Shown piece after piece: positions 1-64,000 of a stretch of DNA of 64,000 nt (position 1 is its first letter; each line of letters begins with the position of its first letter). A program made the position numbers and the translations under genes. The notes under the pieces were generated by a model. That model saw nothing but the letters and a program-made list of their open reading frames with translations. It did no database searches and was not told the origin of the DNA. The stretch comes from Escherichia phage vB_EcoM-813R1. The stretch lies in the sequence record ON470617.2; one strand, 5' to 3'.

Positions 1-861
1 ATGAATCAATCATTTATCTCCGATATTCTTTACGCAGACATTGAAAGTAAGGCAAAAGAACTAACAGTTAATTCAAACAACACTGTGCAGCCTGTAGCGT
101 TGATGCGCTTGGGGGTATTCGTGCCGAAGCCATCAAAGAGCAAAGGAGAAAGTAAAGAGATTGATGCCACCAAAGCGTTTTCCCAGCTGGAGATAGCTAA
201 AGCCGAGGGTTACGATGATATTAAAATCACCGGTCCTCGACTCGATATGGATACTGATTTCAAAACGTGGATCGGTGTCATCTACGCGTTCAGCAAATAC
301 GGCTTGTCCTCAAACACCATCCAGTTATCGTTTCAGGAATTCGCTAAAGCCTGTGGTTTCCCCTCAAAACGTCTGGATGCGAAACTGCGTTTAACCATTC
401 ATGAATCACTTGGACGCTTGCGTAACAAGGGTATCGCTTTTAAGCGCGGAAAAGATGCTAAAGGCGGCTATCAGACTGGTCTGCTGAAGGTCGGGCGTTT
501 TGATGCTGACCTTGATCTGATAGAGCTGGAGGCTGATTCGAAGTTGTGGGAGCTGTTCCAGCTTGATTATCGCGTTCTGTTGCAACACCACGCCTTGCGT
601 GCCCTTCCGAAGAAAGAAGCTGCACAAGCCATTTACACTTTCATCGAAAGCCTTCCGCAGAACCCGTTGCCGCTATCGTTCGCGCGAATCCGTGAGCGCC
701 TGGCTTTGCAGTCAGCTGTTGGCGAGCAAAACCGTATCATTAAGAAAGCGATAGAACAGCTTAAAACAATCGGCTATCTCGACTGTTCAATTGAGAAGAA
801 AGGCCGGGAAAGTTTTGTAATCGTCCATTCTCGCAATCCAAAGCTGAAACTCCCCGAATAA
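1..861 (+). CDS. repA: Iteron-binding plasmid replication initiator RepA (P1 RepA type)
   Basis: 286-aa ORF beginning at window position 1, immediately followed by an iteron array; sequence recognised as P1-type RepA. Upstream origin iterons would lie outside the window. Confidence 0.9.
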   Translation: MNQSFISDILYADIESKAKELTVNSNNTVQPVALMRLGVFVPKPSKSKGESKEIDATKAFSQLEIAKAEGYDDIKITGPRLDMDTDFKTWIGVIYAFSKYGLSSNTIQLSFQEFAKACGFPSKRLDAKLRLTIHESLGRLRNKGIAFKRGKDAKGGYQTGLLKVGRFDADLDLIELEADSKLWELFQLDYRVLLQHHALRALPKKEAAQAIYTFIESLPQNPLPLSFARIRERLALQSAVGEQNRIIKKAIEQLKTIGYLDCSIEKKGRESFVIVHSRNPKLKLPE

Positions 862-1113
862 GTGTGTGCTGGAGGGCAGCTGCATTCAAAAATGTGTGCT
901 GCCGGGAAGGCTTGTCCAATTTCCTGTTTTTGATGTGCGCTGGAGGGGGACGCCCCGCAGTTTGCCCAGACTTTCCCTCCAGCACACATCTGTCCATCAG
1001 TCTTTCCCTCCAGCACACATATTTGATACCAGCGATCCCTCCACAGCACATAATTCAATGCGACTTCCCTCTATCGCACATCTTAGACTTTTATTCTCCC
1101 TCCAGCACACATC
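861..1113. repeat. incA: incA-like iteron array (copy-number control): about 8 copies of a 19-bp iteron, three direct then five inverted
   Basis: Repeated motif (a/g)aTGTGtGCTGGAGGG at 861, 891 and 932 on the top strand, and CCCTCCAGCACACAT-type inverted copies at about 972, 1003, 1035, 1066 and 1094. Confidence 0.75.
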
Positions 1114-1386
1114 GAAGCTGCCGGGCAAGCCGTTCTCACCAGTTGATAGAGAGTGAAGCCTGGCTGCCCGTTGAAGCAGGAAATCACCAAAATGATTCAG
1201 GCTACAACCTGAACATAGAAGAAATCCGCGTCCTTTATACGTGGAGGATGCCAAAGCATGTTGTGACACACTTGGCAAAGGAGTAAACATGCAGAGAATG
1301 CTATGTACAAGCATCTACGCATACATTATTATTTTATGCAGCATTTTTAATTAAATTCAAAAATACAGCATAAAGGATGACTTTCG

Positions 1387-2583
1387 ATGAGTGATTCCAG
1401 CCAGCTTCACAAGGTTGCTCAAAGAGCAAACAGAATGCTCAATGTTCTGACTGAACAAGTACAGTTGCAAAAGGATGAGCTACACGCGAACGAGTTTTAC
1501 CAGGTCTATGCGAAAGCGGCACTGGCAAAATTGCCTCTACTGACTCGAGCGAACGTTGACTATGCCGTAAGTGAAATGGAAGAAAAGGGCTATGTTTTCG
1601 ATAAACGCCCTGCTGGCTCTTCAATGAAATATGCGATGTCAATTCAGAACATCATTGACATATATGAACATCGCGGAGTGCCAAAATACCGGGATCGCTA
1701 CAGCGAAGCGTATGTGATTTTCATCTCCAATCTTAAAGGCGGTGTGTCAAAAACTGTATCGACGGTTTCTCTGGCGCATGCAATGCGTGCCCACCCTCAT
1801 CTTCTGATGGAAGATTTAAGGATTCTGGTTATTGACCTTGATCCGCAATCTTCAGCAACGATGTTTTTAAGCCATAAACACTCTATTGGTATCGTAAACG
1901 CAACATCTGCACAGGCTATGTTGCAGAATGTAAGCCGTGAAGAGCTGTTAGAGGAGTTTATTGTTCCTTCTGTTGTACCTGGGGTTGACGTTATGCCTGC
2001 GTCGATTGACGATGCCTTTATTGCATCCGATTGGAGAGAGCTGTGCAATGAGCATCTACCGGGTCAGAACATCCATGCTGTCCTGAAAGAAAATGTGATT
2101 GATAAGCTGAAGAGCGATTATGACTTTATCCTCGTTGATAGTGGTCCTCACCTTGACGCCTTCCTGAAAAATGCTTTGGCCTCGGCCAATATACTGTTTA
2201 CACCTCTGCCGCCAGCAACTGTCGATTTCCACTCATCGCTTAAATACGTTGCCCGCCTTCCTGAGTTGGTGAAACTCATTTCGGATGAAGGCTGCGAGTG
2301 CCAGCTTGCGACTAACATTGGTTTTATGTCCAAGTTGAGTAACAAGGCAGATCATAAGTATTGCCATAGCTTGGCTAAAGAAGTGTTCGGTGGGGATATG
2401 CTCGATGTCGTCCTCCCTCGCCTTGACGGTTTTGAACGTTGCGGCGAGTCTTTTGACACTGTTATTTCAGCTAACCCGGCAACGTATGTTGGTAGTGCTG
2501 ATGCATTGAAGAACGCGCGAATTGCCGCGGAAGATTTTGCTAAAGCAGTTTTTGACCGTATTGAATTTATCAGATCTAACTGA
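1387..2583 (+). CDS. parA: Partition ATPase ParA (type Ia, with N-terminal HTH extension)
   Basis: 398-aa ORF with deviant Walker A (KGGVSKT) and the long N-terminal extension typical of P1/F-type ParA; lies directly upstream of parB and parS. Confidence 0.9.
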   Translation: MSDSSQLHKVAQRANRMLNVLTEQVQLQKDELHANEFYQVYAKAALAKLPLLTRANVDYAVSEMEEKGYVFDKRPAGSSMKYAMSIQNIIDIYEHRGVPKYRDRYSEAYVIFISNLKGGVSKTVSTVSLAHAMRAHPHLLMEDLRILVIDLDPQSSATMFLSHKHSIGIVNATSAQAMLQNVSREELLEEFIVPSVVPGVDVMPASIDDAFIASDWRELCNEHLPGQNIHAVLKENVIDKLKSDYDFILVDSGPHLDAFLKNALASANILFTPLPPATVDFHSSLKYVARLPELVKLISDEGCECQLATNIGFMSKLSNKADHKYCHSLAKEVFGGDMLDVVLPRLDGFERCGESFDTVISANPATYVGSADALKNARIAAEDFAKAVFDRIEFIRSN

Positions 2584-2599
2584 GGAGTAAGAAACCCCC

Positions 2600-62571: not shown

Positions 62572-62809
62572 TAGTTTTGCCGCCGTTTCGTAATACGACT
62601 TTGGATTCACTATTTAATGTGTCTTCAGCGTTGTAGAGCGGCTCAGAAGGAAATGAGCAAACAGGGAAACCTTATACAACGGCATTACAGCTATGCATTG
62701 CTCATCTTACACACAGCGCAATGTTGTTAGATTACCCCAGCATGGATCATGGGTGAAACAGTAGGTCAGAGCTTCAGGCTCTGTGTTGTCAATACAGTGA
62801 GGCATAATT

Positions 62810-63019
62810 ATGGCTTTCATTCCACCAACCATCGACGACGTTAGACATTGCTCTAACGCTTTATCTGTAGACCCTGCCGAAACCGACGCTGCCCGCGCCA
62901 TTGCTGAACACTACTCAAAGATATCCAATCAGGAGTACCGCATCACCCAAGACGACCTGGATGATCTCACTGACACAATCGAATATCTCATGGCCACTAA
63001 CCAGCCAGACTCACAATAA
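62810..63019 (+). CDS. coi: Coi (C1 inactivator)
   Basis: 69-aa ORF immediately upstream of c1, downstream of the operator pair. Confidence 0.65.
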   Translation: MAFIPPTIDDVRHCSNALSVDPAETDAARAIAEHYSKISNQEYRITQDDLDDLTDTIEYLMATNQPDSQ

Positions 63020-63129
63020 ATGCACTAATAAATCTATTATTTTCGTTGGATCCTTCTATAATGGTGGCCAACAACTCCCAGTGTAATCCGCTGTGAGTTG
63101 TTGGCCATGTCAATTCTGGAGGAGGATCA

Positions 63130-63953
63130 ATGATAAATTATGTCTACGGCGAACAACTGTACCAGGAGTTCGTCAGCTTCAGGGATCTCTTTCTAAAAAA
63201 GCTGTTGCACGCGCCCAACACGTTGATGCCGCCAGCGACGGTCGTCCTGTACGCCCGGTTGTCGTTCTACCGTTCAAAGAAACGGACAGCATTCAGGCTG
63301 AAATTGATAAATGGACTTTAATGGCGCGGGAACTGGAACAGTACCCAGACCTCAATATCCCAAAGACTATTTTATATCCTGTGCCTAACATCCTTCGCGG
63401 TGTGCGTAAGGTTACGACTTATCAGACAGAAGCTGTGAACAGCGTCAACATGACCGCTGGCCGCATTATTCATCTGATTGATAAGGACATTCGCATCCAG
63501 AAAAGCGCGGGGATCAATGAGCACAGTGCGAAATACATAGAGAACCTGGAAGCAACAAAAGAGCTAATGAAGCAGTACCCGGAGGATGAAAAATTCCGTA
63601 TGCGTGTACACGGCTTTAGCGAAACAATGCTGCGCGTCCACTACATTTCCAGTAGCCCTAACTACAATGATGGTAAATCAGTTAGTTACCATGTGCCGCT
63701 GTGTGGTGTGTTTATCTGCGATGAAACTCTCCGTGATGGAATCATCATCAACGGTGAATTCGAGAAAGCAAAATTTAGCCTTTATGACTCTATAGAACCG
63801 ATCATCTGCGACCGCTGGCCGCAGGCAAAAATATATCGCCTGGCAGATATTGAAAATGTAAAAAACAAATTGCCATCACTCGCGAAGAGAAAAAGGTCAA
63901 ATCAGCCGCATCAGTTACGCGCAGCCGTAAAACTAAGAAGGGGCAGCCAGTAA
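63130..63953 (+). CDS. c1: C1 immunity repressor, frameshifted at an A6 run near 63200
   Basis: Start MINYVYGEQLYQEFVSFRDLFLKK, then the frame breaks at ctaaaaaagc while ORF 63093-63953 continues ...AVARAQHVDAASDGRPVRP... to the end; operators matching the C1 consensus are dispersed through the window. Confidence 0.8.
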
Positions 63954-64000
63954 ACGACAACCCCGAAAGCGCGCAATAGTTTCTATCCGGCATGGTCAAT

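Follow-up and report, generated by a model that had tools for sequence, protein, structure and literature searches.

Apparent gene breaks in the first 64 kb of the Escherichia phage vB_EcoM-813R1 record: very probably long-read consensus errors in an intact P1-like phage-plasmid

A stretch of 64,000 nucleotides (nt) from the record of Escherichia phage vB_EcoM-813R1 (ON470617.2; hereafter 'the window', meaning this whole stretch) carries the genes of a P1-like phage-plasmid, many of them interrupted by single-base frameshifts and one, cre, by a stop codon. The question raised by this locus is whether these lesions are present in the molecule or only in its sequence. The initial annotation had favoured uncorrected long-read homopolymer and methylation-context errors, and this explanation is now supported by alignment to close relatives, by the sequence context of the lesions, by their bias toward deletions, by their blindness to selection, and by the restriction of the lesion alleles to this record. 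Judging from these sequence comparisons, the frameshifts and the cre stop codon are very probably uncorrected consensus errors of the nanopore type and not biology.

Aligned along its whole length to bacteriophage P1 (NC_005856), the window falls into collinear blocks of 96–98 per cent nucleotide identity, in an order reversed relative to the P1 record: repA, par, the head and tail genes, sit, the tail-fibre segment, dar, mod-res, cre, and c1. The repA/incA/parAB, c1, cre-lox, EcoP1-type mod-res, and dar genes of P1 are all also found in the window. The element is a P1-like IncY phage-plasmid by its P1 synteny and identity, which extend to repA/parAB, c1, cre, dar, mod-res, and the structural modules. 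Its closest public relative is pEC-16-35-3 (NZ_CP093228.1), from Escherichia coli in ascites (Zhengzhou), with positions 1–63753 of which the window is collinear at 99.87 per cent identity; the differences are nearly all 1-nt gaps, and the substitution divergence is only ~0.02 per cent. The second close relative is pIso00270_01 (NZ_CP095126.1), from E. coli in a chronic wound (Ghana), and a third is pRIVM_C029554_1 (NZ_CP068934.1; Netherlands), in which the repeat architecture of sit is the same as in the window. All three have the gene order and the repA start of the window, with all of the genes listed below annotated as intact; NZ_CP093228.1 and NZ_CP095126.1, which are typed as IncY in PLSDB, have every gene discussed here annotated as intact. 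The tnpB insertion, the C-segment, and the darB-mod-res block are identical in the window and in the intact IncY relatives. What sets the window apart from these relatives is 51 extra indels of 1–2 nt and the cre stop codon.

Lesions were called against NZ_CP093228.1 with megablast, which aligned the window in two blocks (1–18738 and 18574–64000), the offset between them being due to an additional 297-bp tandem repeat in sit; the ambiguous overlap within the sit repeats was set aside in the counts. P1 is unsuitable as a reference, being 2–3 per cent diverged and separated from the window by 59 gaps that mix natural and artefactual differences, and the 99.9 per cent identical relatives were used instead. 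Over the 64 kb, the window differs from NZ_CP093228.1 by 50 deletions, 1 insertion, and 16 substitutions; one deletion removes 2 nt, and every other indel is of 1 nt. When the 56 annotated genes of NZ_CP093228.1 were transferred to the window and translated, 25 proved to be broken, 24 of them by frameshift and cre by a change of TGG to TGA. The initial annotation had reported at least 17 broken genes. In the alignment to NZ_CP093228.1, every break that it named is present, at or no more than ~15 nt from where it had been placed, but the total was an undercount: icd, simC, U, U', Sv', darA, a hypothetical gene homologous to NZ_CP093228.1 39746–40840, and lxc had been missed. Lesions within genes had also been undercounted, with four in res (rather than two), five in darB, two in pmgG, and two in c1. 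As that annotation had anticipated, each break is a 1-nt indel (in one case 2 nt) in a gene otherwise identical to its counterparts in NZ_CP093228.1, NZ_CP095126.1, and NZ_CP068934.1, and the reported TGA in cre results from a C>T change at 61851, read on the minus strand. The affected features are as follows.

1–64000, unstranded: 64-kb head of a P1-like (Punavirus) IncY phage-plasmid, rotated to the repA ATG start
3827–5532, plus strand: gp23, major head gene; complex lesion at 4864–4866 (TTGGC > TAAC, net −1), premature stop codon at 4886–4888
8006: gp21; silent 1-nt deletion in the TAAAGG stop-codon run
8042–8621, plus strand: pmgG; 1-nt deletions at 8149 (G5 in CCAGGGGG) and 8295 (G6)
8633–9141, plus strand: bplB; 1-nt deletion at 8875 within CCAGG
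10152–10854, minus strand: rlfA (DUF3800); deletions at 10508 (A7) and 10738 (T8)
11023–11865, minus strand: repL (lytic replication); deletions at 11233 (T6), 11339 (T7), and 11387 (G5)
13900–14118, minus strand: icd; 2-nt deletion at 13906 (C7 > C5) and 1-nt deletion at 14057 (T6)
15023–15801, plus strand: simC; deletion at 15520 (T5)
17214–18094, plus strand: pmgB; deletion at 17588 (GGG in GGGAG), in neither a long run nor CCWGG
18176–22188, plus strand: sit (tape measure/transglycosylase); deletions at 18447, 19196 (A6), 19553 (T7), 19799 (A6), and 21524 (C4, CCCCTGG)
21644, plus strand: sit; the sole insertion, CCAGGG > CCAGGGG
25335–28853, plus strand: S, tail-fibre gene; deletions at 26715, 27179, and 27482 and substitutions at 27481 and 27781, all in copies of CATCCCTGGAATC
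28856–29845, unstranded: U and U', tail-fibre assembly genes; overlapping 3' ends changed by a deletion at 29254 (G5)
29845–30332, minus strand: Sv', alternative tail-fibre C-terminus; deletion at 30285 (C4), and A>G at 30010 in CCAGG
30363–30934, plus strand: cin-like invertase; deletion at 30672 (T6)
33068–34986, plus strand: darA; deletion at 33125 (C5)
35388–36595, minus strand: tnpB (IS200/IS605 family); deletion at 36405 (T6)
36694–39680, plus strand: ddrB; deletion at 38886 (CCC of CCCTGG), and A>G at 36896 in CCAGG
40010–41103, minus strand: hypothetical gene, homologue of NZ_CP093228.1 39746–40840; deletion at 40103 (CCAGGGG)
46391–53153, plus strand: darB; deletions at 47239 (CCCCCTGG), 47361 (CCAGGGG), 48202 (CCCCTGG), 49869 (A6), and 52233 (CCAGGGGG)
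53624–53871, plus strand: lxc; deletion at 53792 (CCCCAGG)
54023–55962, plus strand: mod (type III methyltransferase); deletion at 55058 (A7)
55965–58873, plus strand: res (type III endonuclease); deletions at 56135 (A7), 58515 (T5), 58751 (A7), and 58771 (CCCAGG)
59778–60337, minus strand: ref; deletion at 59898 (CCAGGGG)
60945–61976, minus strand: cre; plus-strand C>T at 61851 (TTTTCCAGG > TTTTTCAGG), coding TGG > TGA, codon 42
63130–63979, plus strand: c1 repressor; deletions at 63195 (A7 > A6) and 63860 (A7 > A6)
888 (A6), 3719 (A8), 14488 (T8), 15928 (C7), 36663 (G5), 59602 (A6), and 60343 (A8): seven intergenic 1-nt deletions

The gp21 gene is not among the broken ones, as its deletion leaves the 271-amino-acid open reading frame (ORF) intact.

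The context of the lesions is highly specific. Counted over the runs of the reference, the fraction carrying an indel is 1/34043 (3e-5) for single nucleotides, 3/9371 (3e-4) for runs of 2 nt, and 7/2210 (0.003) for runs of 3 nt; it rises to 7/662 (0.011), 9/223 (0.040), and 10/68 (0.147) for runs of 4, 5, and 6 nt, and reaches 10/17 (0.59) and 4/6 (0.67) for runs of 7 and 8 nt. The initial annotation had located the breaks in homopolymer runs or in or beside CCTGG, and this holds for 46 of the 51 indels if runs of at least 5 nt are taken together with CCWGG sites (W, A or T) and their flanking runs. These contexts make up 4.0 per cent of positions, so that the enrichment is extreme (binomial test; P-value about 1e-58). 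CCWGG alone, with 1.4 per cent of positions, contains 16 indels (P-value = 7e-18) and 5 of the 16 substitutions (P-value = 2e-6), and 20 of the 158 CCWGG sites are altered. The CCWGG effect is independent of run length: indels are found in 4/46 runs of 3 nt inside the motif versus 3/2164 outside it, in 6/16 versus 1/646 runs of 4 nt, and in 3/3 versus 6/220 runs of 5 nt, a 30- to 250-fold increase in rate at constant length. Deletions outnumber insertions 50:1 (P-value = 5e-14 against 1:1), and at most two substitutions lie outside the repeats, the CCWGG sites, and the complex lesion of the head gene.

The five substitutions in CCWGG are A>G (30010 and 36896) and T>C (27481) at the central base, G>C (27781), and C>T at the outer C (61851, the cre stop). 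Deamination of 5-methylcytosine at Dcm sites was considered as their source and rejected, as none of the five falls at the inner C or its paired G in the C>T or G>A sense; the cre change, too, lies within CCWGG but not at the deamination-prone inner C.

The tail-fibre gene S provides an internal replicate of the CCWGG effect. It holds eight paralogous copies of CATACACATCCCTGGAATCAGAT (with the marker motif CATCCCTGGAATC, a CCCTGG repeat), which are identical in NZ_CP093228.1 (8/8) and in NZ_CP095126.1 (6/6). In the window, four of the eight copies are damaged, and in four different ways: CCCGG, CCTGG minus a C, CCCCG, and CCCTCG. Four dissimilar, independent mutations at one pentamer, where substitutions are otherwise almost nil, are not a plausible mutational history; they are the product expected from an ambiguous signal at a methylated motif.

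The constant part of S (25956–28223) in which these copies lie is an array of repeats of roughly 300 and 168 bp. The array has six copies of the marker motif in pIso00270_01, and P1 has a shorter a/b repeat set. Further substitutions within the array relative to NZ_CP093228.1, at 26699, 26998, and 27557–27629, look like shuffling of repeat variants and not like errors.

The lesions are blind to selection, to coding status, and to gene function. Coding and non-coding sequences contain 43 and 8 indels, respectively, compared to the 43.6 and 7.4 expected from class-specific context rates (P-value = 0.84), and runs of at least 7 nt are shortened as often in coding (10/16) as in non-coding sequence (4/7; Fisher test, P-value = 1.0). 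They are also private to this record. Support for the alleles was assessed by alignment, since exact k-mers were broken in P1 by neighbouring single-nucleotide polymorphisms (SNPs) and undercounted there. At the alignable sites, the reference allele is confirmed by NZ_CP095126.1 in 45 of 47 cases, by P1 in 35 of 42, and by NZ_CP068934.1 in 10 of 10. When its five deletions and one insertion are undone, the sit gene of the window measures 4017 nt, the length of the intact sit of NZ_CP068934.1, and over window positions 14104–23298, the only differences from NZ_CP068934.1 are a single SNP and the 10 indels already called there. An 80-nt query with the A6 allele of the first c1 deletion found that allele in none of 701 matching E. 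coli records, and a query around the cre stop codon found the TGA allele in none of 690. No match of 100 per cent to the window was obtained in INPHARED phages, PLSDB, or RefSeq complete E. coli genomes; exact look-ups of the proteins of three ORFs created by frameshifts gave no hit, and a 44-mer across two of the res deletions is unmatched in IMG/VR and in JGI metagenomes. The absence from PLSDB and the RefSeq complete genomes would be compatible with the record having been excluded for too many frameshifted proteins.

Natural divergence within this group of plasmids looks very different. Over 92 kb, the finished assemblies NZ_CP095126.1 and NZ_CP093228.1, taken as a control pair, show 322 substitutions but 7 small gaps; no gap falls in a run of at least 4 nt, and CCWGG accounts for just 2 of the substitutions. 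The ratio of substitutions to indels is thus 16:51 in the window versus 322:7 in the control pair (Fisher test; P-value = 4e-42). The 18 indels that distinguish the window from P1 in addition to the 51 are balanced (10 insertions and 8 deletions), and they lie in the repA-parA spacer, in other regions outside P1-annotated coding sequences, or in S, where they preserve the frame (a 6-nt gap and a compensating pair).

These patterns could be accounted for as follows. The source would be a long-read-only assembly that received no polishing with accurate reads, most likely generated from native DNA on an Oxford Nanopore platform of the R9 generation, as the lesion pattern suggests. The basecaller or the consensus step would have undercounted long homopolymers by one base, and 5-methylcytosine, by shifting the current signal, would have led to miscalls at Dcm-methylated CCWGG sites and in their surroundings; wherever a base was miscounted within coding sequence, a frameshift would then appear, and the reads would be expected to contradict the consensus. 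The real molecule is most likely an intact, ordinary, and presumably functional IncY P1-like phage-plasmid, essentially identical to NZ_CP093228.1 but with the longer sit allele of NZ_CP068934.1. The implied error rate, about 58 in 64 kb or about Q30, is typical of nanopore-only assemblies. In such assemblies of Enterobacteriaceae, consensus errors are dominated by CCAGG/CCTGG motifs, followed by homopolymer lengths (Wick, Judd & Holt 2019, Genome Biol 20:129, PMC6591954); in E. coli, 93–98 per cent of nanopore-specific variants were found in CC(A/T)GG (Greig et al. 2019, bioRxiv 10.1101/570192), and deletions predominate in longer homopolymers (PMC8486125). The window resembles the profile described in the first two of these reports (PMC6591954; 10.1101/570192) in its focus on Dcm motifs and homopolymers, its excess of deletions, and its quality of about Q30. 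It differs from that profile in that only about 13 per cent of its CCWGG sites are hit and homopolymer errors outnumber Dcm errors. The limited damage at CCWGG, together with the partial damage to long runs, suggests a later or partly methylation-aware basecaller, or partial polishing.

If the lesions were instead real, the window would come from a cryptic plasmid of P1 descent, so heavily decayed that only the replication and partition functions are left. The distribution of the damage has the look of such a domesticated remnant, as repA, parA, and parB are intact and lytic, structural, immunity, and restriction genes are broken. However, the three genes are intact because they offer few susceptible sites (the expected numbers of lesions are only 0.13, 0.61, and 0.35, respectively), and coding and non-coding susceptible sites are hit equally often. 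Decay would also have left more than indels: no substitutions have accumulated beside the 51 indels apart from the at most two counted above, there are no large deletions and no new insertion sequence (IS) insertions, and gene content and order are those of the intact relatives. The 50:1 deletion bias, moreover, contrasts with 8:10 among natural indels against P1. Finally, from P1 annotation and established P1 biology, a plasmid that has lost c1 would be expected to be lethal or unstable if its kilA, controlled by a C1 operator, is intact. We therefore consider real decay highly improbable, and we give just as little credence to its variant in which a strongly deletion-biased mutational process hit long homopolymers and Dcm-methylated CCWGG and a replication/partition remnant lacking c1 survived. 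A further reading has the lesions as real, having arisen by slippage in a mismatch-repair-deficient (mutator) host. The homopolymer pattern alone does not discriminate against it, because genuine slippage during replication likewise becomes exponentially more frequent in longer runs: this is the dependence described for the indel rate of mismatch-repair-deficient strains (PMC8510543), and the window shares it. In mismatch-repair-deficient E. coli, however, there are 6.02 substitutions versus 0.85 small indels per coding sequence, or about 7:1 (PMC8510543, Table 3), and the 16:51 of the window departs strongly from this ratio (P-value = 7e-33). Slippage would likewise not be expected to be 30 to 250 times more frequent in CCWGG than elsewhere in runs of equal length, and it leaves unexplained both the four different lesions at one repeated CCTGG motif and the deletion bias. 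Changing ~60 per cent of the runs of 7–8 nt with almost no substitutions would in addition require very many generations free of selection. A mutator host is the least credible of the explanations weighed here.

The lesions might also stem from a different sequencing platform or assembly pipeline, for instance from flow-space chemistry (Ion Torrent or 454) or from an unpolished PacBio continuous long read (CLR) assembly; this is very unlikely, though somewhat easier to entertain than real lesions. Errors in homopolymer length are typical of flow-based chemistries as well. PacBio CLR errors are insertion-biased and largely random. The lesions that tell against such platforms are those in CCWGG within runs of at most 3 nt (8875, 26715, 27179, 27482, 38886, 58771, 27781, 30010, 36896, and 61851), which are documented for nanopore and are not expected from flow-based or PacBio chemistry. 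Several observations nonetheless weigh against reading every lesion as a nanopore consensus error, in addition to the run-length dependence shared with true slippage. Nine of the 23 runs of at least 7 nt are unaffected, so that the error process must have been partial, which a partly polished consensus would fit. Four indels (4864–4866, 8006, 17588, and 18447) lie outside both CCWGG and runs of at least 4 nt, and a fifth exception, at 30285, is in a C4 run outside CCWGG; these five could be residual random error, the effect of another methylation motif, or real. The head-gene lesion at 4864–4866 is complex, consisting of two substitutions and a deletion. The reference reads GGATCTTGGCTCC and the window GGATCTAACTCC at this site, which directly adjoins a GATC Dam site, and the lesion, belonging to neither the homopolymer nor the CCWGG class, may be either a real mutation or a consensus glitch caused by the Dam context. 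At 15928, the C6 allele of the window is that of P1, and this difference could be natural.

The two G deletions at 17588 and 18447 share a GGGAG context outside long runs and CCWGG. The shared context may be coincidental, or it may point to a further methylation motif with an effect on basecalling.

Programmed frameshifting and phase variation were considered as well, for pmgB upstream of the tape-measure gene and for mod, and were rejected as a general cause: the relatives have single uninterrupted ORFs at these loci, and the same type of lesion occurs in 24 genes and in intergenic runs alike. Type III mod genes of Haemophilus, Neisseria, and Helicobacter undergo homopolymer-based phase variation (phasevarions), and the mod gene of the window resembles these in that its frame is lost through a single-nucleotide change within an A7 tract (55058). 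It differs from them in that the same lesion is found in 24 unrelated genes and 7 intergenic runs at an equal rate per run, and in that two other long A tracts in the same mod gene (A8 and A7) are unchanged. We know of no phase variation of mod in the P1 family.

The value of these results lies in quality control and not in biology. An annotation, a pseudogene count, a defence-system call, or the inference of a 'cryptic phage-plasmid' drawn from the ON470617.2 window would be wrong, and about 0.8 indels per kb are to be expected across the remaining assembly, too. The contig needs to be polished, or excluded, ahead of comparative analysis, for which the lesions listed above provide a ready correction set. 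More generally, context statistics and a near-identical reference can diagnose an artefact of this kind without reads.

The window and the three related public plasmid records all start exactly at the repA ATG. This common start indicates automated replicon rotation during assembly, with the window being the head of a circularised plasmid record and not a random fragment.

Several regions differ from P1 in gene content. The IS5 of P1 is absent from the window, where a clean junction is found at 54771–54774, and the isaA-IS1-isaB region of P1 has other genes in its place (39976–41095). The invertible tail-fibre segment (26081–31066) is replaced relative to P1, and the cin-like invertase of the window is only 70 per cent identical to P1 cin. 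Also present in the window but not in P1 are a tnpB element and an additional 297-bp repeat of sit. The tnpB gene (35388–36595, minus strand), which belongs to the IS200/IS605 family (an RNA-guided endonuclease family), is flanked by ddrA and ddrB; both close relatives share it and P1 lacks it, and no tnpA is annotated beside it.

The c4/sim superimmunity region (window 13270–15924; NZ_CP095126.1 13282–16617) differs between the two closest relatives. The window and pEC-16-35-3 have simB/simC-like genes, whereas in pIso00270_01 their place is taken by a DUF4760 gene together with other small ORFs; the difference is a local module swap between plasmids that are otherwise 99.9 per cent identical. 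In the repeat region of sit (18278–19035), the window has one more 297-bp (99-amino-acid) tandem repeat than pEC-16-35-3 and P1. Because NZ_CP068934.1 has the same architecture in an intact gene, the extra repeat represents natural variation in the length of the putative tail ruler, and it might alter tail length.

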